This document shows positions 1,002 through 29,880 of a stretch of 34,540 nucleotides of DNA, piece after piece. The number at the start of each line of letters is the position of its first letter. The first letter of the stretch is position 1. Position numbers and translations under genes: made by a program. The notes under the pieces were generated by a model. It was not told the DNA's origin. It worked only from the letters and a program-made list of their open reading frames with translations, and did not search any database. The stretch comes from a bacterium. Lineage in GTDB: Bacteria; SZUA-182; JBHHXV01. The stretch covers positions 1 to 34,540 of the forward strand of contig JBHHXV010000001.1 in the NCBI GenBank assembly GCA_046757225.1, read 5' to 3'.

Positions 1002-3524
1002 TTACCTTTTTATCCCTGAAAAAAGGTTCAGCTGTCTGGTACTGATCTTAGATTTTCTACCTTGTCTGTGCCGGTCCGATTTACGGATCAGGTGCATTTT
1101 CCGCTGCCGGTCTTCCAGGCCGTCCAGCACCTCCAACGCCCGGGCGATCAATTCCCCGGGCAGCCCGGCCAGCCGGGCCACCTGAATCCCGTAGCTGCTG
1201 GTGGCGTGTCCGGGAACGATCTTGTACAGGAACACTATCTCCTGTTCGCTTTCCTTGACCGCCACGTTATAGTTGATGATTCCCGGCAGGCGGTCGGCCA
1301 GATCGGTCAGCTCGTGATAGTGGGTGGCGAACAGGGTCTTTAAACCCGGTCTTTCCACCAGGTGCTCGGCCACCGCCTCGGCAATGCTCACCCCGTCATA
1401 GGTGCTGGTTCCCCGGCCGATCTCGTCGATAATGATCAGGCTTCCGGGAGCGGCGTTATTTATGATATTGGCGGTTTCGCTCATCTCCACCATAAAGGTG
1501 CTCATCCCCTGGCTGAGATTGTCCGAAGCCCCCACCCTGGTAAAGATCTGCCTGACCGCCCCGATCTCCGCCCGCTTTGCCGGAATAAAACTGCCCGCCT
1601 GAGCCAGCAGCACCAGCAGCGCCACCTGGCGCATGTAAGTCGATTTTCCCGCCATATTCGGGCCGGTAATCATCAACAGACGATTCTCTTCCCCGTCCAG
1701 CAGGCAGTCATTGGGAATAAAGCGCTCAGTAAGCCTTTCCACGACCGGGTGTCGTCCGGCCTTTATACATATCCGGCTGGTGCCGGTAATTTCCGGCCGG
1801 GTGTAATTATACTCGGCGGCCAGCTCCGCCAGACCGCTCTGGCAGTCGATTTCGGCCAGCTGTTTCGAAGCACTCTGTATCTTCGGAGTGGAGGATAAAA
1901 CCTCCCCGCGTATTTTCAGGAAGATTTCGTATTCCAGACGGCCCAGCTCTTCTTCGGCGCTGAGCAGCCTGGTCTCGTAACTCTTCAGTTCAGGGGTGAT
2001 GAAACGCTCGGCATTAACCAGGGTCTGTTTACGGATATAATCGTCAGGCACCTGGTTGAGGTTGCTTCTGGTGATCTCGATATAATAACCGAACACCTTG
2101 TTGTATTTTATTTTCAAGGAGTTGATTCCGGTGCGCTCCCGCTCGGCCTGTTCCATTCTGGCCAGGGCCGCCTTGCCGCTGCCGCGCAGTTCCCGGAGTT
2201 CGTCCACCTCTTTTGAGAACCCCGGTTTAAGCAGGCCGCCTTCCTTGATGGTCTGGGGAGGGTCATCTACAAGAGATTCCTCAAGAAGCGCGACGATTTC
2301 CGGCAGGTCGGGCAGCTTTTCCCGTAACCCGTCAAGAACAGGTTGATCTAAACCGGACAGGATTTATTTAATTCCGGGAATTCGGGCAAGAGAGTTTTTT
2401 AAAGCGACCAGGTCGCGGGCGCTGGTGGCGGATAAGGAGAGCCGGCTGATCAATCTTTCGATATCCGAAAGCTCTTTCAAAAATTTTCTCAGTTCGTTCC
2501 GCTCTCTGAACCGGCTGAAAAAGGCCTCCACCAGATCCAGCCGCTCATTTATCGCTCCGGGGTCGATCAGGGGATGGAGGAGGCGGTTTTTCAACATCCG
2601 GCTGCCCATCGGGGTCCGGCAGAAATTGATAACTTTAAGCAAGGTTCCCCGGGAAGAGCCGTCATAACCGGAACGGACCAGCTCCAGGTTTCTCCTGGTG
2701 GCCGGATCGATGGTGATATGCTCATCCAGGGAATAATAAGAAAGATGGTGGATATGGGCGCAGCTGCTTTTGAGGGTTTTTTCTATGAAACTCAAGGCCC
2801 CTCCGGCGGCGGAGATGGCCATCGGCTTGTCCTGACAGCCGAAACCCTTGAGATTGATCACTCCGAACCCTTGGGTCAGCCGATGATAGGCTGTCTTATG
2901 CTCAAATTCGTTCCTGTCCTGAATCTCCACCGGCACACCCAGATTTTTCACCAGTTTTTGCAGGCCGGCCGGGGATTGTCCGGGAATAAGAATCTCTTTC
3001 GGTTCCAGCCTGGTCAGCTCGCCGGCCAGGATCTTCCAGTCCGGCGAGTCCTCAAACTCGGTGATCTGAAAATCACCGGTGGAAAGATCGACCACCGCCA
3101 GCCCCACCCGGCAGTCGGGATCGGCGGTCAGGGAAACCAGGTAGTGATTGCTTCCTTCTTCCAGCAGGTTGGCGCTTACCACCGTTCCGGGCGAGACGGT
3201 GCGGACGATTTCCCTCCTCACCAGCCCCTTGGCGTCCCTGGGGTCTTCCACCTGCTCGCAGACCGCCACCTTGTATCCTTCCTTGAGCAGCTTGGAGATA
3301 TAATTTTCCAGGGCGAAATGGGGAAACCCGCACAGGGGAACGGAGTTATCGTTTTTCTTGTCGCGGGCGGTGAGGGCGATCCCCAGTATTTTCGAGGCTA
3401 TTACCGCGTCTTCATGGAACATTTCATAAAAATCACCCATCCGGAAAAAAAGGATGGCGTCTCCGGCCTCTTTCTTGACAGCCAGATATTGACGCATCAG
3501 AGGGGTGGTTTTATCTTCAGTCAT
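1002..3524 (-). pseudogene. mutS: DNA mismatch repair protein MutS, full length (841 codons) but interrupted by one in-frame TAA at 2364..2366
   Basis: ORF 2364..3524 holds the MutS N-terminal mismatch-binding, connector and core domains (MTEDKTTPLMRQYL..FFRMGDFYEMF). ORF 1002..2207 holds the clamp and ATPase domains (GPNMAGKST Walker A, DEIGRGTSTYDG, THYHEL, C-terminal QLNLF clamp motif). I checked that both are in the same frame. The 52 codons between the TAA and the GTG at 2207 read ILSGLDQPVLDGLREKLPDLPEIVALLEESLVDDPPQTIKEGGLLKPGFSKE, which is normal MutS core sequence. Confidence 0.85.
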
Positions 3525-14780: not shown

Positions 14781-16589
14781 TTATTTTTCTTGAAGCCTTT
14801 TCTGAAGGTCCTCTAATTTTCCCTGAGCCTCCAGCCACAGATTCTCCTGCTTCTCCAATGATTTTTTTAATTGCGCCAGCCGTTTGCTCTTTTCCTGAGA
14901 ATAGACCGAAGGGTTGTCTCTAAAATATAAGAAGATCTCCTGCCGCTCATGCTCCTGTTGCTCAATCGATTTTTCAAAATCCCTGATAAGCTTCCGCTGC
15001 AACCTTATCTCCTCCTGGGTCTTCTTCCGGTTCGCCTGTTTCTTCGGTTTTGGGGCCGGCTTTCCGGGAAGCTTAAGCCGATGTTGCGCGCCGCCTGCCT
15101 CGACATCAGCGCTCCTTTTCTTTAAGTCATTCACATAATCCTGATAATCACTGTGATAATACCTTATTTCTCCATCTCTTACCTCCATGATGCCGGTAGC
15201 CAGCATATTGACAAAGGTCCGGTTATGGCTGATAAACGAGATGGTGTTGTTGCACTTTGATAAAGCGGCTGCCAAGGCTTCCACTGTCTCAAAATCCAAA
15301 TGGTTTGAAGGCTCGTCCAAAAGCAGTACCTTGGTCTTTTTCAAGAGCAGGCCGGCCAGATACAGCCGGGCTTTCTCTCCGCCGCTTAACATCCCGATCT
15401 TCTTTTGGGTGTCTCGAAACAGGAAATTTCCCGCCATTTCATAGATCTCTTCAGTGGTCACCTCAGGGGCGGCGCATTCACATAAATAGTCAAAGACCTG
15501 TTTCTTGGGGTCAAGTGAGCCGGGAACATGCTGAGCATAATAGGCGATATCGCTATCCTTTGACCAGCTGAACTCCCCATGAAGCGGTTCGATCTCCCCG
15601 GCCAGTGTTTTCATAAAGGTCGTCTTTCCCTGGCCGTTATCCCCCACGACTGCAATATGTTTTCCCCGCTCGATTTCCTGATTTATCTCTCCCGCTACAA
15701 CCTTGGATTCGCCATAACCGATATACAACTGCTTTGTTTTCAGAGCGATCCCCTTTCTCTGTTCAACCTTGGGGATACTGATACGAACATTACTAAGCGG
15801 ATTTAAGATTTCAATCGTTTTAAGGCGCTGGATCTGCTTTTGTTTTGATTTTGCTTGACTGGCTTTTGAGGCTTTGGCGGAAAAACGATCCACAAATGTC
15901 TGTAAATGCTTTTTCTGCCGGGCAATATTCTTGTTGGTCTTTTCCTTTAACTCAAGCTGTTCCCTTTTATAGGCCAGATAATCCTCTAAAGGCCTGGGAA
16001 AAAGAAAGAGACTCTGGTTTTCTATGTCCAGGGTATGCTCAGAGACATTTTTTAGAAATTCCCGGTCATGCGAAATAACCAGATACGACCCCCGAAAAGA
16101 GAGCAGAAATCGCTCCAGCAGGAATTGAGTGCTTAAATCAAGATAATTGGTAGGCTCATCCAGTAACAGGAGGTTCGGCTCTCCCAGCAGCATGGCGGTA
16201 AGCTTGACCCGCATCTGATACCCTCCGGGCAAACCGCCTATTACCGAATGAAGAATATCGCTGCCTAATTGAAATTGCGCGGCTACTTTACCGCATTCCC
16301 ACTCTTGTTTTCCGGTATACCTTACTAAGAACTCAAGAACCTTTTCGGTCGGGTCAAAGGGATCATGCTGCTCCAAATATCCCAGTCTGGTTTGCTTACC
16401 GAGGGTAACAGCCCCGGAATCAAGAGCCTCTTCCTGGGTTATCATTTTAAAAAGAGTCGATTTTCCCGCTCCGTTCCTCCCGATAACCCCTATCTTCTTT
16501 TTTTCGGAAACCGTCAGATTGGCTTTGTGAAAAAGAACCTGATGATTATAGGATTTTGAAAGGTTTTCTATTTGCAGTAACATAGGCAT
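14781..16589 (-). CDS. ABC-F family ATPase with C-terminal coiled-coil extension (Uup-like)
   Basis: Two ABC cassettes (GRNGAGKST and GDNGQGKTT Walker A; LPGGYQ and LSGGEK signatures; LLLDEP twice), no TM domain, Lys-rich linker, long charged C-terminal coil. I place the start at ATG 16589 (MPMLLQIENLSKSY); 16583 is also possible. The 40 upstream in-frame codons of the track ORF are encoded by repeat S copy A. Confidence 0.8.
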   Translation of the reverse strand: MPMLLQIENLSKSYNHQVLFHKANLTVSEKKKIGVIGRNGAGKSTLFKMITQEEALDSGAVTLGKQTRLGYLEQHDPFDPTEKVLEFLVRYTGKQEWECGKVAAQFQLGSDILHSVIGGLPGGYQMRVKLTAMLLGEPNLLLLDEPTNYLDLSTQFLLERFLLSFRGSYLVISHDREFLKNVSEHTLDIENQSLFLFPRPLEDYLAYKREQLELKEKTNKNIARQKKHLQTFVDRFSAKASKASQAKSKQKQIQRLKTIEILNPLSNVRISIPKVEQRKGIALKTKQLYIGYGESKVVAGEINQEIERGKHIAVVGDNGQGKTTFMKTLAGEIEPLHGEFSWSKDSDIAYYAQHVPGSLDPKKQVFDYLCECAAPEVTTEEIYEMAGNFLFRDTQKKIGMLSGGEKARLYLAGLLLKKTKVLLLDEPSNHLDFETVEALAAALSKCNNTISFISHNRTFVNMLATGIMEVRDGEIRYYHSDYQDYVNDLKKRSADVEAGGAQHRLKLPGKPAPKPKKQANRKKTQEEIRLQRKLIRDFEKSIEQQEHERQEIFLYFRDNPSVYSQEKSKRLAQLKKSLEKQENLWLEAQGKLEDLQKRLQEK

Positions 16590-16636: not shown

Positions 16637-16719
16637 GGAGTGGAGTCTTCCCAATCTTGGGGGATAACTGGCTTTTTTCATCATGAGGGGGTGACGGATG
16701 GCCCGTCATGAAAAGTTTT
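16637..16719 (-). repeat. Repeat S, copy A, in the 5' region of the ABC-F gene
   Basis: Sense (minus) sequence: AAAACTTTTCATGACGGGCCATCCGTCACCCCCTCATGATGAAAAAAGCCAGTTATCCCCCAAGATTGGGAAGACTCCACTCC. Outer stem is CTTTTCA/TGAAAAG and the inner hairpin is TGACGG-GCCAT-CCGTCA. It differs from copy B at 5 positions by hand alignment. Confidence 0.8.
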
Positions 16720-16873
16720 GATAAAAAGACCCTATCATTTATGAACCGGTTTTACAAGAGCTAACCCGAATTATTTGGAAACCATAACCGGCGAATCGAT
16801 ATTTACCAGAAACAGGTAACCGGAAATGACAGACGTGGGGGTGTTTCGGCTTGAGACAAAATGCAAAAAAAAC

Positions 16874-16923
16874 TTGACAAGGGGCAAAAAACCGTTATAA
16901 TCATGATAACGATTATCATTATC
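16874..16923 (+). promoter_or_regulatory. Sigma70 promoter with overlapping Fur box, upstream of porin-feoB
   Basis: TTGACA (16874..16879), 16-nt spacer, TATAAT (16896..16901). Immediately downstream, GATAACGATTATCATTATC (16905..16923) matches the 19-bp Fur consensus GATAATGATAATCATTATC at 17 of 19 positions. Confidence 0.75.
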
Positions 16924-16940: not shown

Positions 16941-18296
16941 ATGGAAAGAAAACTCACCCTGATCGGGAGCCTGGCATTCTACCTGACGCTTATCTGCGGG
17001 AATGTTCAAGCCGGGCCGCCCCTTGCTCAGGAATCACCGTACGATGGCGATCACAAGCACTTCTGGCGGGTAAAAACCCATGAGCATGAAATGGGCGATT
17101 TTTTCAAGGGACTGGATATTTCCGGGCAGATGACCGGTATTTACCAAAACAGCGGCCTTGATCTGCAACCGGGCGACTTGACCGGGAAAGCGGAAAATCA
17201 CCCGTACGCGACCGGAACCTTTTCCTCGGATCTGTTTATCGAAAAGGAATTCGACAATGATTATGTCATGTTCGATATCCAGTATGCCTCCGGGCTGGGA
17301 GTGGACGCTAACCTGCAGGGCGGTGGCATGGTCAACAACGATGTCATGCAGGACTTCGAGCATAATAATCAACCGTATATCGCCCGGGCCTATTATGAAC
17401 ATACCTGGGAAGCAGGCGGGGGATATAAGGCGCGCTTAGACATGGGCCGATTCAGTGTCGCCGATTTTTTTGACCTGGGAGAACGGGTGGCTGACCAGGC
17501 AGTCCGGTTTATCAATCAGGCGATCTGTAATAACGGCGCCTTCGATTACGTCCAGGACCTTCAGGGACACGGTTATACCTTCGGAACGAGAGTGGCCCTG
17601 GAAACCCCGTGGATAAACCTGTCCGGGGCAGCCCTGTCCTCCGATTCGGTTCTGGATAACCTTTCTGACAAATACTCTCTTATCGGCTCCCTGGAGTTTC
17701 ATCATCAGTTTACGGAAAATGTAACCGGAAAATACCAGATTTATTATTTCAAGAACTTCGGGGAATACGCCCGGTTCGATGACCAGGGTAACCTGGTTAC
17801 TGACGATACCACTCCCAATCATGATCTGATAAACACCTCCGACAATCCGGATAACTTGGACAAAGCCGGTTTCGGCATCAGTATCGATCAGTCCCTGCCC
17901 ATGGGGATCAACCTGTTCGGTAAATACGGAAAACAGGACGATGACCGGGACGTGCGCCATTATCAGGATATGGACGAAAGCGTCATGTTCGGCTTCGATC
18001 TCAGCGGGGAGCACTGGCGCCGGCCCAAAGATGTTCTGGGCATCGCTTACCAGATCGGCCGGTTGACCGGAAACCACCGGCTGGCCCACGAAAAGGGGTA
18101 TGAAAGTTTCTTCAGCCGCCCGGGAATCGGAGCGGGAAATTACGCTGACGAACGGGTGCTGGAGATTTATTACCGGTGGGCCTTGACCGACCATATCGGT
18201 ATCGGGCCGGATTACCAGCATATTGAAAACTTTTTCTACAGCCGAAAGATCGGCGGGGTCGATTTCTGGGGAGCCAGGATAAATGTCGGATATTAA
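16941..18296 (+). CDS. Outer-membrane porin, OprB-like family
   Basis: Signal peptide MERKLTLIGSLAFYLTLICGNVQA. Alternating beta-strand pattern with a C-terminal aromatic residue (..ARINVGY). The C-terminal E.YYRW.L.....I.PDYQHI.N resembles the OprB-family PD.QY..NP motif. ATG 16941 is preferred over the track's GTG 16935. Confidence 0.6.
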   Translation: MERKLTLIGSLAFYLTLICGNVQAGPPLAQESPYDGDHKHFWRVKTHEHEMGDFFKGLDISGQMTGIYQNSGLDLQPGDLTGKAENHPYATGTFSSDLFIEKEFDNDYVMFDIQYASGLGVDANLQGGGMVNNDVMQDFEHNNQPYIARAYYEHTWEAGGGYKARLDMGRFSVADFFDLGERVADQAVRFINQAICNNGAFDYVQDLQGHGYTFGTRVALETPWINLSGAALSSDSVLDNLSDKYSLIGSLEFHHQFTENVTGKYQIYYFKNFGEYARFDDQGNLVTDDTTPNHDLINTSDNPDNLDKAGFGISIDQSLPMGINLFGKYGKQDDDRDVRHYQDMDESVMFGFDLSGEHWRRPKDVLGIAYQIGRLTGNHRLAHEKGYESFFSRPGIGAGNYADERVLEIYYRWALTDHIGIGPDYQHIENFFYSRKIGGVDFWGARINVGY

Positions 18297-20550
18297 ACTT
18301 TTCATGACGGGCCATCCGTCACCCGCTCATGATGAAAAGAGCCGGTTATCCCCCAAGATTGGGGAGGCTCCACTCCGGTATTCTCACGGTAAAACAATAA
18401 CGGTCGCCCTGGCCGGAAATCCCAATTCCGGAAAAACCTCCATCTTTAATAACCTGACCGGCGGCCGCCAGAAGGTGGGAAACTGGGCCGGGGTAACAGT
18501 CACCAAAAAGGAGGGAAATCTTAAATACAAGGGGTATCAGATCAAGGTGGTCGATCTTCCCGGTATCTACAGCCTGACCGCCTACTCCATCGAGGAGATA
18601 GTAGCCCGGAACTACATAGTCAACGAAAAACCGGATATTATCGTCAATGTGGTCGATGCCGCCAACCTGGAACGGAACCTTTACCTCTCCACCCAGTTCA
18701 TCGAGTTGGGAGCGAGGATGGTAATCTCTTTGAATATGGTGGATACCGCCCAGGGTCAGGGAATCGAGGTGGATAAACATAAACTGGGGCGATTAATCGG
18801 GGTTCCCCTGGTGGAAACGGTGGGCAGTAAAAACCAGGGCACGTTCGAGCTGTTGGATGAGGTGCTGGCGGTTTACCAGCATGATGACCCGGTCAGCCGC
18901 CATATTCATATCAACTACGGGCAGGATATCGAGGAGGAAATTCATAAAATTCAAGGCGAAATCCGTCAGCATCCGGAACTGCCGGAAAAGTACTCCACCC
19001 GCTGGCTGAGCGTGAAGCTGCTGGAAAAGGATCCGAAAATCCTGGAACTGCTGGAGGAAAATCGCTCTCATTACCCCAATGTCATCTCCCAAAGCGAAAA
19101 AAGCCGAACATATCTGGAAAACATCTATAAAGAAAACCTGGAAGAGGTAATAACTGACCGGCGTTACGGTTTTATTGCCGGCGCCTGTCAGGAAGCAGTT
19201 CGTTTTACCAGGCAGGACCGGCTTACCCTGTCGGAAAAAGCGGACCGGGTGATCACCAACCGCTGGCTGGGGTTCCCGCTGTTCATTCTGGCCATGTGGC
19301 TGATGTTCCGCTTGACCTTCGGTATCGGGGATATACCCAAGGGATGGCTGGAAACGTTTTTCAGCTGGTCGTCCCTGACCGTCCGGCAGGTCATGTCTCC
19401 GGGGTTGCTGCGTGACCTGATCGTGGACGGCCTGATTTCCGGGGTGGGAAGCATCATCTCGTTTCTGCCGGAAATTTTTATGATATTTTTGTGCATCTCT
19501 TTTATGGAAGATACCGGTTATATGGCCCGGGCCGCCTTTATCATGGACCGGGTGATGCATACCCTGGGTCTGCACGGCAAGTCTTTTATCCCGCTGTTAA
19601 TGGGGTTCGGCTGCAATGTCCCGGCGATCATGGGAACCCGCACCCTGGAAAGCCGCAGGGACAGAATCCTGACCATCTTACTGATTCCCTATATGAACTG
19701 CAGCGCCCGGTTGACCGTTTTCGTCCTGCTCACCGGCGCCTTTTTCCCCAACAACGCCGGAAATGTGATTTTCCTCTTATATATGACCGGAATTCTCTTT
19801 TCCATTCTATCGGGTCAGCTGTTCAAGAAGCTGTTTTTTAAGGGAGAGACCGCCCCTTTTGTCATGGAACTGCCGCCCTACCGGCTTCCCAGCGTGAAAA
19901 GTCTTGTTATTCACATGTGGAACAAGGGGGTTATCTTTATTAAGAAGGTCTGGAAGGTGGTTTTGTACGGCTCGATACTCATCTGGTTTTTGAGCGCCTT
20001 TCCCCAGCAGGTGAACTATTCGGTTGATTACGGCTCCCTGATTAACCGGGTGGAACGGAAATACGAAAAGATTGACCCAGGTGATCGAACTTTGGCGGCG
20101 AGGAAAGCTATGGAAATCAGTAAAATAGAGAATCTCCGTTCAGAAGAGCATATGGAGAAATCGTTCCTGGGCCGGGTCGGCCGGCTGTTCGAGCCGCTTA
20201 TCAGCCCGCTTGGTTTCAGTTGGAAGGAGGGAGTGGCTTTAATAAGCGGCTTTATCGCCAAAGAGATCGTGGTAAGCAGTATGGGGGTGCTGTACCGTGT
20301 CGGTTCCCAGGTGACCGAAGAGAGCAAGAGCCTGGTGGCAGCGGTCCGGGGTTCCCATATGACCCGCTTGAGCGCCTTTTGCCTGATGCTGTTTATCATG
20401 CTGTATGTCCCCTGCCTGGCCACCATCGGAGCGATCACCAAGGAAACCGGCTCCCGCAAATGGACGTATTTTTCAATTCTCTACAGCCTGACTTCCACCT
20501 GGCTGCTGGTTTTCGTCATTTACCGGACCGGGCGGCTGTTTGGTTTATAA
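18283..20550 (+). CDS. feoB: Ferrous iron transporter FeoB (start uncertain: ATG 18283 or ATG 18304)
   Basis: G-domain VALAGNPNSGKTSIFN..DLPG..NVVDA.NLERNL, followed by a polytopic membrane domain with gate motifs. There is no ATG, GTG or TTG in frame between 18304 and the G1 motif, so the S-repeat-encoded ~35 aa must be part of the ORF. Confidence 0.85.
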   Translation: MSDIKLFMTGHPSPAHDEKSRLSPKIGEAPLRYSHGKTITVALAGNPNSGKTSIFNNLTGGRQKVGNWAGVTVTKKEGNLKYKGYQIKVVDLPGIYSLTAYSIEEIVARNYIVNEKPDIIVNVVDAANLERNLYLSTQFIELGARMVISLNMVDTAQGQGIEVDKHKLGRLIGVPLVETVGSKNQGTFELLDEVLAVYQHDDPVSRHIHINYGQDIEEEIHKIQGEIRQHPELPEKYSTRWLSVKLLEKDPKILELLEENRSHYPNVISQSEKSRTYLENIYKENLEEVITDRRYGFIAGACQEAVRFTRQDRLTLSEKADRVITNRWLGFPLFILAMWLMFRLTFGIGDIPKGWLETFFSWSSLTVRQVMSPGLLRDLIVDGLISGVGSIISFLPEIFMIFLCISFMEDTGYMARAAFIMDRVMHTLGLHGKSFIPLLMGFGCNVPAIMGTRTLESRRDRILTILLIPYMNCSARLTVFVLLTGAFFPNNAGNVIFLLYMTGILFSILSGQLFKKLFFKGETAPFVMELPPYRLPSVKSLVIHMWNKGVIFIKKVWKVVLYGSILIWFLSAFPQQVNYSVDYGSLINRVERKYEKIDPGDRTLAARKAMEISKIENLRSEEHMEKSFLGRVGRLFEPLISPLGFSWKEGVALISGFIAKEIVVSSMGVLYRVGSQVTEESKSLVAAVRGSHMTRLSAFCLMLFIMLYVPCLATIGAITKETGSRKWTYFSILYSLTSTWLLVFVIYRTGRLFGL
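18295..18376 (+). repeat. Repeat S, copy B, between the porin stop and the feoB G-domain
   Basis: AAACTTTTCATGACGGGCCATCCGTCACCCGCTCATGATGAAAAGAGCCGGTTATCCCCCAAGATTGGGGAGGCTCCACTCC. It is in inverted orientation relative to copy A and starts at the porin stop codon. Confidence 0.8.
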
Positions 20551-20565
20551 TTTCCTTTTGATAAT

Positions 20566-20641
<76 letters not shown>

Positions 20642-20720
20642 AGAAAATAAAGAGCTGTCACGAAAAATCCTGCGCAATCTTGTACGGCTTGTTTCATGAC
20701 AGCACCGGAAAAGGCTTTAT

Positions 20721-20833
20721 GCCAACGTCCGGATAAAATTTATCGGCAAACAGAAGTTGAAGGGAAACTGATAAAAAGTAACTATTTTCAACAACATATC
20801 ATCTGCTTTGCTATGATTCCCGAATTATTCGGG
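20721..20833. repeat. Repeat D, copy 1 (intergenic, between lepA and tRNA-Thr)
   Basis: gccaacgtcc...agttgaagggaaactga(taaaa)agtaactattttcaacaacatatcatctgctttgctatgattcccgaattattcggg. The core is identical to copy 2 apart from a 5-nt indel. Three potential hairpins: GTTGAA/TTCAAC, ATCAT/ATGAT and CCCGAA-TTA-TTCGGG. Confidence 0.8.
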
Positions 20834-20842
20834 CTAAATAAT

Positions 20843-26063: not shown

Positions 26064-26326
26064 TCATGCTTCATACTTATCAGGGCAGCCGGTCATCAGT
26101 TTGGTGGCGTTCATAAAACCGTCCTTGCTCAGTTTTCCTTCTACGACTACATGCACGCCGTATTTAAAGCTGTCGGGAACTGTTTTAGAATAATATATCT
26201 TCTTTGATTGGTAATAACCTGGGAGACTGAAAGGTAACCGTTGTTACGGGATAAAAACCAGTAAAAAATAAACGAGGCGGCGACCGCCATTATCGGTATA
26301 ATTATAAGGAGCTGCTTTTTTTTCAT
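26064..26326 (-). pseudogene. ccmE: CcmE-like heme chaperone remnant (CXXXY type): frameshifted and missing the central OB-fold segment
   Basis: Frame a, from ATG 26326, gives the membrane anchor MKKKQLLIIIPIMAVAASFIFYWFLSRNNGYLSVSQVITNQ and stops at 26147. The -1 frame, from about 26205, reads KKIYYSKTVPDSFKYGVHVVVEGKLSKDGFMNATKLMTGCPDKYEA* (stop 26064..26066). That is the CcmE C-terminal third, with C-PDK-Y replacing H-xxx-Y. About 45 aa expected between the two pieces are absent. Confidence 0.6.
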
Positions 26327-26354
26327 CTTCGATACTTTTACCGTGGAAGACCTT

Positions 26355-26435
26355 GTGTGGAGCTGGCTTTCCACGGGGGTTGACAACCTTTTTTCATCAC
26401 CTGGGGATAATGAAAGGCCCTTCATGAAAAGTTTT
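26355..26435 (-). repeat. Repeat S, copy C (diverged), in the 5' UTR of the ccmE-like gene
   Basis: Sense (minus) sequence: AAAACTTTTCATGAAGGGCCTTTCATTATCCCCAGGTGATGAAAAAAGGTTGTCAACCCCCGTGGAAAGCCAGCTCCACAC. It keeps the outer stem CTTTTCAT/ATGAAAAG, the CCCC tracts and the ..CTCCAC end. The inner hairpin shows a C-G to A-T paired change relative to copies A and B. Confidence 0.65.
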
Positions 26436-26476: not shown

Positions 26477-26549
26477 TAACCCTTCTTTAGCCCGGTTTAT
26501 TCAAGCATAAACTTGGCTGACATTTGCCAGACCCCAGAAAATGAATCAG

Positions 26550-26657
26550 GCCAACGTCCATACAAAATTTGTTAGCCCAAAAAAGTTGAAGGGAAACTGA
26601 AGTAACTATTTTCAACAACATATCATCTGCTTTGCTATGATTCCCGAATTATTCGGG
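26550..26657. repeat. Repeat D, copy 2 (intergenic, between the ccm promoter region and the pheT promoter)
   Basis: Same sequence as 20721..20833. The ~80-nt core agttgaaggg...attcggg is identical apart from the absent taaaa. The 5' 35 nt are about two-thirds identical. Confidence 0.8.
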
Positions 26658-26674
26658 TTAGTGATCCGATGTTG

Positions 26675-29689: not shown

Positions 29690-29880
29690 AAGGGTTTCCC
29701 CCTGTAGTGCCCGTGATGCAGGGAAATTTTTTGGACCTATAAATCTTACAAAGGGAGTCTGATTCCTGGCCGTGGGCGCCCTCTCCGGAGGGTACTTTAA
29801 CGATCAGCGGAGATGGCACCCACCTGGTTTTCCAGGGTCAAAAAATTACCTCACACGACAGTACGGGGGGACTTTAATTC
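29690..29880 (+). ncRNA. ssrS: 6S RNA (ends approximate)
   Basis: Conserved synteny zapA - ssrS - 5-formyl-THF cyclo-ligase. By hand, 29697..29737 pairs with 29836..29871 as a long interrupted helix (CCCCCTGTA/TACGGGGG; CGTG/CACG; TTTTTTG/CAAAAAA). Inner helices GTGGGCGCC/GGCACCCAC and CCCTC-tccg-GAGGG leave a central asymmetric bubble. This is the rod-like 6S architecture. Confidence 0.65.

Follow-up and report, generated by a model that had tools for sequence, protein, structure and literature searches.

Three copies of a short repeat in the window

The DNA analysed here, a stretch of 34,540 nt that is referred to as the window, comes from the genome of an uncultured bacterium and contains three copies of a short repeat, termed S, at an ABC-F gene, at feoB and at a degraded ccmE gene. 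Copy A precedes the start of the ABC-F gene by ~47 nt and lies between this gene and a divergent gene for an OprB-family porin. Copy B is found at the junction of the porin gene with feoB, and copy C lies upstream of ccmE-ccmF-ccmH, ending 10 nt upstream of the ATG of ccmE. The copies and the codons that define their surroundings are as follows:

16587..16589, minus strand: start codon of the ABC-F gene that follows copy A, in exact agreement with NCBI MFQ5645310.1
16637..16718, minus strand: copy A, comprising 79 nt of the unit preceded by AAA; covariance model score 108.7 bits
18283..18285, plus strand: feoB's own start ATG, with an AGGA Shine-Dalgarno sequence at 18276-18279
18294..18296, plus strand: TAA with which the OprB-family porin gene ends; the S unit begins 2 nt later
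18298..18393, plus strand: copy B, complete 96-nt unit; covariance model score 118 bits
26324..26326, minus strand: ATG that opens the ORF of the ccmE membrane anchor, which follows copy C
26337..26431, minus strand: copy C, diverged 95-nt unit with a 1-nt deletion; covariance model score 91.3 bits

A repeat comparison of the window aligns A with B at 94% identity over 82 nt (18295-18376, plus strand, in B) and C (26375-26435, minus strand) with A and B at 73-77% identity, in agreement with an earlier note on this DNA that had reported copies at these three places. The 16-mer CTTTTCATGANGGGCC occurs exactly three times in the window, only in A, B and C, and a covariance model search of the window returned no additional or degenerate S copies beyond them. 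None of the window ORFs that were compared with Pfam encodes a transposase.

The NCBI annotation of the ABC-F protein (602 aa, MFQ5645310.1) begins at the ATG at 16589 and excludes copy A. This copy has lost its 3' tail (~17 nt) or diverged there, and the 27 residues that it encodes are identical to those of a copy within the SPOR protein P0121. FeoB is annotated from the ATG at 18283 as a protein of 755 aa (MFQ5645312.1), and copy B is flanked by feoB codon 5 (AAA, 18295-18297) and by ACA (18394). The first 14 nt of feoB, from the ATG at 18283, are shared with the end of the porin gene, an overlap that is older than the S insertion. Copy C shares 92% identity over 60 nt with copy F on the Logan contig L012. 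Owing to its 1-nt deletion, the 3' half of copy C is read in another frame, and of the related peptides that had been described for the three copies, those of A and B stand as such and that of C matches them in its first half only. The ccmE gene behind copy C (26064-26326, minus strand) is itself degraded, with the membrane anchor in one frame and the CcmE domain in another; the latter covers positions 44-97 of 99 of the Pfam profile (E 3.7e-11), the first 43 positions being missing.

Several further features of the window were recorded. A second repeat, T, is present at 20705-20836 and 26534-26660 in the same orientation, with 83% identity over 132 nt. Its copies lie upstream of tRNA-Thr (20566-20641, minus strand) and of S copy C, and T may represent a duplicated promoter region or a further mobile repeat. 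The palindrome CCCGAATTATTCGGG is part of repeat T (20819-20833 and 26643-26657), recurs in degenerate form at 16761-16786, upstream of copy A, and directly follows the AttH stop codon on Logan contig L011 (L011:1255-1276). It resembles a family of REP-like or terminator-like hairpins in this genome. The mutS gene is present as two ORFs (1002-2207 and 2364-3524, minus strand) split by a single in-frame TAA at 2364-2366, which is either a nonsense mutation (a possible mutator or a pseudogene) or an assembly error. A tandem repeat at 130-656, with a period of 135 nt (45 codons), 3.9 copies and 84% match, lies in an ORF (67-729) with no Pfam match. The window also carries a 6S RNA gene (29696-29873; Rfam RF00013, 71.5 bits) and four tRNA genes, for Gln, Ser, Thr and Met.

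Anatomy and reading frame of the unit

The full S unit comprises 96 nt (32 codons) from CTTTTCATGA to CACGGTAAA, a length found exactly in copies B, D and E, with 95 nt in C. The earlier estimate of ~80 nt proved too short, as the 3' tail ending in TTYYCACGGTAAA is common to B, C and two further copies and is gone from A. The unit is arranged as CTTTTCATGAC, GGGCC, GATGAAAA, CCCCC and CACGGTAAA, in this order and with intervening sequence. AAA is found on both sides of S in nearly all copies, forming a Lys codon in the translated ones, and TAAA flanks copies B, C and E. Such flanks could point to preferred target sites, whether or not a short duplication takes place.

Among the six reading frames of copies A, B, D and E, only the sense frame f+0 is free of stop codons. 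This frame encodes KLFMTGHPSPxHDEKSRLSPKIGETPLRYFHGK, a segment of 32 residues that is rich in Pro, Ser, Gly, His and Lys and probably disordered. One open frame in a unit of 32 codons explains why all intragenic copies that survive are read in the same frame. The five differences between A and B (four nonsynonymous, one synonymous) confirm the earlier hand count, and substitutions from copy to copy are spread evenly across codon positions, with pN/pS of 0.57-1.10 and no excess of third-position changes. The S peptide is therefore not under noticeable selection and evolves in a near-neutral manner, which upholds the earlier argument that selection does not act on the peptide. The motifs HDEKS and PLR.FHGK recur among the S peptides, and the best conserved residues are those that lie over the inverted repeat of the nucleic acid.

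Further copies within unrelated proteins

A set of 1.84 billion representative proteins was searched with a profile of the S peptide, no word index being used. Six real matches were obtained (E 5e-15 to 1.5e-4), all at internal positions, all carrying KLF[MI]TGHPSPxHDEKSRLSPKIGETPLR.FHGK and all from the window's own NCBI MAG. By Pfam, the six hosts are a SPOR-domain protein, a STAND-NTPase/TPR protein, a Lipoprotein_16 protein, an AttH/CrtC lipocalin, a beta-helix lipoprotein and a metallophosphoesterase. The S peptide is placed at host residues 119, 805, 144, 48, 7 and 84, and at residue 6 in FeoB. At least seven S copies thus reside within the coding regions of unrelated proteins, a count that covers translated in-frame copies, which a protein search detects, and not intergenic, antisense or out-of-phase ones. 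The link to iron or heme that the genes of the window had suggested dissolves with this list, as the other hosts are unrelated to iron. In three of the intragenic copies (P0122, P0123 and P0126) the ATG of the element is replaced by an Ile codon (AUH), and the copy in P0126 is truncated. At the DNA level, two of the protein-hit genes were recovered from Logan, with copy D on L011 and copy E on L012/L013; the latter contigs added one more copy, F, which is cut by the contig end. Including these contigs (~6 kb) and the 34.5-kb window, ~40 kb of DNA from this organism was examined.

Searches beyond this organism were negative. The pattern CTTTTCATGANGGNCN{12,26}TGATGAAAA gave two matches in GTDB species representatives and eight in JGI metagenome contigs, all of which were chance matches on reading; the source genome is therefore absent from these two collections, as is any close S copy from elsewhere. 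A looser S pattern had no matches in viral contigs, and blastn of S against plasmids returned none either. Applied to 27.7 kb of the nearest relative with accessible DNA (SRR24270831), the covariance model detected no copy, its best score of 14.8 bits belonging to a sequence that shares only AAAACTTTTCA. The nearest FeoB to that of the window is 56% identical, and the nearest LepA is 68% identical, followed by several phyla at 64-67%, with named matches in Nitrospirota, Acidobacteriota and Schekmanbacteria. The host lineage is poorly sampled and deeply branching.

Removal of S restores ordinary proteins

Three host proteins permit a comparison with and without the unit. In AttH, residues 16-46 and 82-383 can be aligned with PDB 2ICH, and the 35 residues in between (47-81) face three in 2ICH; in silico deletion of 96 nt yields a loop of the same length as in 2ICH. 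Deleting copy B from feoB leaves the N-terminus MSDIKTITVALAGNPNSGKT, which is normal (MSDIKTITVALAGNPN) and corresponds to that of 119 homologues. These begin ~10 residues before GNPNSGKT, and the S extension is present in none of the 119. Similarly, deletion of S from the lipoprotein produces MKLFRLKRYPVFLGVWLAVAGC, a textbook lipoprotein signal peptide. In an AlphaFold2 model of FeoB, residues 1-35 have pLDDT < 50 and the first strand starts at residue 38, the low values being partly expected because the alignment has no homologue that covers the insert.

As excision of 96 nt restores an ordinary FeoB N-terminus, copy B sits inside feoB as an in-frame insertion after codon 5. The proposal that every copy marks the 5' end of an unrelated gene thus applies to A and C, which are upstream of genes, and not to B. 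Likewise, the ATG of the element does not serve as the start of feoB, which has its own ATG with AGGA five codons upstream of the insertion.

RNA folding, promoters and reading phase

The earlier description of S as structured was weakened by a comparison among copies. Their RNA MFE folds differ, the z-scores against shuffled sequences are -1.1, -1.4, +1.1 and -2.5, and there is no significant gain in stability over the shuffles. A single inverted repeat recurs among the copies; it is internal, in the 5' half (CTTTTCATGACGGGC/GCTCATGATGAAAAG; 12-15 nt, 80-83%), and no terminal inverted repeats join the ends of the four complete copies when their flanks are included. In the alignment fold, an outer AU-rich stem of 6 bp is invariant, and the inner hairpin has one compensatory change from C-G to A-U (copy F) and several changes from G-C to G-U. 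RNAalifold on six sequences, a small sample, found a double change in 2 of 17 pairs and a covariation term of +0.42 kcal/mol, which is unfavourable. As the earlier note had anticipated, no Rfam family is recognised: cmscan gave no match over the copies, either at gathering thresholds across the whole window or at E<=10 in both S neighbourhoods. A scan for sigma-70-like promoters yielded none on the gene strand within A or C or immediately ahead of them; the sole strong promoter (TTGACA-16-TATAAT, 16874-16901, plus strand) is that of the porin gene.

The ATG within TTTTCATGA was reported to lie in phase with each downstream gene, and its distances are as given: 40 codons to the ABC-F start (16589) and 33 codons to the ccmE ATG (26326), both in phase, with a frame that is continuous with FeoB. 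The further claim that three such junctions are unlikely by chance has to be narrowed. Copy B is necessarily in phase, being inside feoB. For A, the chance of phase (1/3) and of an open 47-nt AT-rich spacer (0.26 by shuffling) multiply to ~0.09, and for C, with its 10-nt spacer, the chance is ~0.3. That both are in phase by chance has a probability of ~0.02, a value that was calculated post hoc for only two cases and is suggestive.

Comparison with known repeats

The closest parallel is found in the Rickettsia palindromic elements (RPEs). An RPE measures ~105-150 bp, codes for a conserved peptide and occurs as an in-frame insertion in dozens of unrelated genes (PMC10969869, PMC3184786), and RPEs are grouped into the families RPE-1 to RPE-10 (Ogata et al. 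2000, reviewed in PMC10969869, PMC3184786). S resembles them as a dispersed repeat in the range of ~100-150 bp with one open frame, which is found in-frame inside unrelated genes without destroying the host protein and also in intergenic positions; for both, no transposase has been identified. Differences lie in the host, which does not belong to Rickettsiales (best LepA identities 66-68%), and in the unit itself, which has 96 nt, is only weakly palindromic, shows no significant fold and has AAA or Lys-codon flanks that are peculiar to S.

Other short bacterial repeats share part of these features. MITE-ORF fusions are documented for QMITE1/2 of Coxiella (PMC5896051), and further MITEs include ERIC/YPAL, BOX and those of Anabaena (PMC3184786). 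Like S, they are small non-autonomous repeats. Most are intergenic, and some form in-frame fusions to host ORFs, prolong the ends of genes or provide stop codons. The defining features of MITEs are terminal inverted repeats and target-site duplications corresponding to those of an IS, whereas S is devoid of the former and has a possible duplication of 3-4 nt (AAA/TAAA). Internal in-frame insertion is apparently the rule for S and the exception for MITEs, a comparison biased by the protein search through which the S copies were found. The MIRU, which Supply and colleagues reportedly described in 1997, are said to be repeats of 40-100 bp at the gene junctions of operons that are oriented with the genes and contain small ORFs with ends overlapping the neighbouring stop and start codons. 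Copies B and E are similar in that both start 2 nt after the TAA of the upstream gene (in E, on L012, the order is likewise TAA, one A and the S unit). However, MIRU are intercistronic and often in tandem, in contrast to S, which is located inside the downstream coding sequence as a single copy per site and also deep in genes. Finally, REP/REPIN sequences, mobilised by RAYT transposases, are extragenic GC-rich palindromes of 20-40 nt with GTAG or CGTC heads (PMC3733652). S and REP/REPIN are alike as abundant short bacterial repeats with hairpin potential, yet S has 96 nt, is translated and largely intragenic, and presents neither GTAG/CGTC heads nor a strong hairpin.

Interpretation and alternative explanations

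These observations are best explained by S being a short, non-autonomous dispersed repeat that is translated in the manner of RPEs and has multiplied in the genome of one uncultured bacterium, a reading to which we assign a probability of roughly 85%. Among the explanations in the earlier note, the translated palindromic element analogous to RPEs is the one that is supported, by the six additional internal copies, the 32-residue insertion of AttH relative to 2ICH and the normal proteins that result from excision. With a host other than that of the RPEs and no terminal inverted repeats, S would represent a new family within a known class of behaviour, that of RPE-like translated dispersed repeats, and neither an RPE proper nor a MITE.

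Its mobility is suggested by dispersed copies at 75-94% identity. Insertion would take place at AAA or TAAA sites, perhaps with a duplication of 3-4 nt. A unit that lands inside a gene in sense and in-frame would leave the gene intact and add 32 residues, so that the S peptide is presumably made; copies in the other five frames would bring stop codons and were presumably purged. Copy B would have inserted in frame after feoB codon 5, and A and C in A-rich upstream regions. The clustering of copies near gene 5' ends may result from the A-richness of initiation regions and from Lys-rich N-termini, an A-rich target thereby creating an apparent preference for 5' ends. Splicing or translational bypass of S was set aside, since a unit that is removed or skipped would need neither an open frame nor a length that is a multiple of three.

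That S instead acts in cis as a regulatory 5' leader RNA (for example a riboswitch, a thermosensor or a leader bound by a protein), with its AUG sequestered in the CUUUUCAUGA/UCAUGAUGAAAAG stem, is very unlikely. The sense orientation of A and C just upstream of start codons speaks for it, as do the invariant 6-bp outer stem and the inner hairpin with its compensatory change and several G-C to G-U changes, but most copies are intragenic (at least seven within coding regions, up to residue 805) and the AUG has become AUH in P0122, P0123 and P0126. Furthermore, the MFE folds vary by copy and are no better than those of shuffled sequences, the RNAalifold covariation term is positive and thus unfavourable, Rfam has no match, and an identity of 94% at unrelated genes fits recent copying and not an ancient conserved leader. 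Hardly any weight can be given to the 32-residue peptide being a functional module (a tag, degron, metal-binding or interaction motif) spread by selection. Here, the frame that is open in all copies seen, the recurrent HDEKS and PLR.FHGK and the His, Asp and Glu residues of the peptide would fit, and are offset by a pN/pS of 0.57-1.10 with third-position changes not in excess, and by the coincidence of the conserved residues with the inverted repeat of the nucleic acid. The segment is predicted to be disordered, C shifts frame midway, P0126 is truncated, and the noncoding copy A retains the same 'peptide'. The position in the host also varies between the N-terminus, a linker, a loop of the lipocalin barrel and the interior of a signal peptide, and with residues as far apart as 7 and 805 the shared N-terminal tag that had been put forward is not supported.

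Another alternative accepts S as mobile and holds that A and C were co-opted, their in-phase AUG acting as an upstream start for extended isoforms or in the tuning of initiation. Both copies are in sense, in phase and stop-free to the downstream start, a combination with the joint chance of ~0.02 given above, and C ends close to the ccmE ATG. On the other hand, no Shine-Dalgarno sequence precedes the AUG of the element (AAAACUUUUCAUG), 16589 is the ABC-F start in the NCBI annotation, the ccmE gene downstream of C carries a frameshift, is shortened and leaves little to regulate, and the argument concerns two cases that were noticed after the fact. We regard co-option as unlikely. As copies of a mobile, RPE-like repeat, A and C would presumably be passengers and not regulators.

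Implications

Short repeats that colonise genes in frame are known in detail mostly from Rickettsia, with sporadic cases among a few MITEs, and S, as an unrelated family in an uncultured lineage, would indicate that this behaviour is more widespread. It would offer clean cases, before and after insertion, of the tolerance of a de novo loop in the FeoB N-terminus, in a barrel loop of the AttH lipocalin and in a lipoprotein signal peptide, and would explain odd N-terminal extensions and 'hypothetical' segments in the annotation of this MAG. It also serves as a warning against taking repeats of this sort for riboswitch-like leaders. More tentatively, S may belong to an independent RPE-type system, active at present, in a free-living and uncultured deep lineage, one that lacks terminal inverted repeats, targets AAA (Lys-codon-like) sites, which are enriched near translation starts, and thereby remodels protein 5' ends and loops systematically, with A and C maybe co-opted; we consider this extended reading possible, although doubtful. 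If true, it would provide a second natural experiment, governed by a defined target rule, in how selfish DNA gives rise to parts of proteins.
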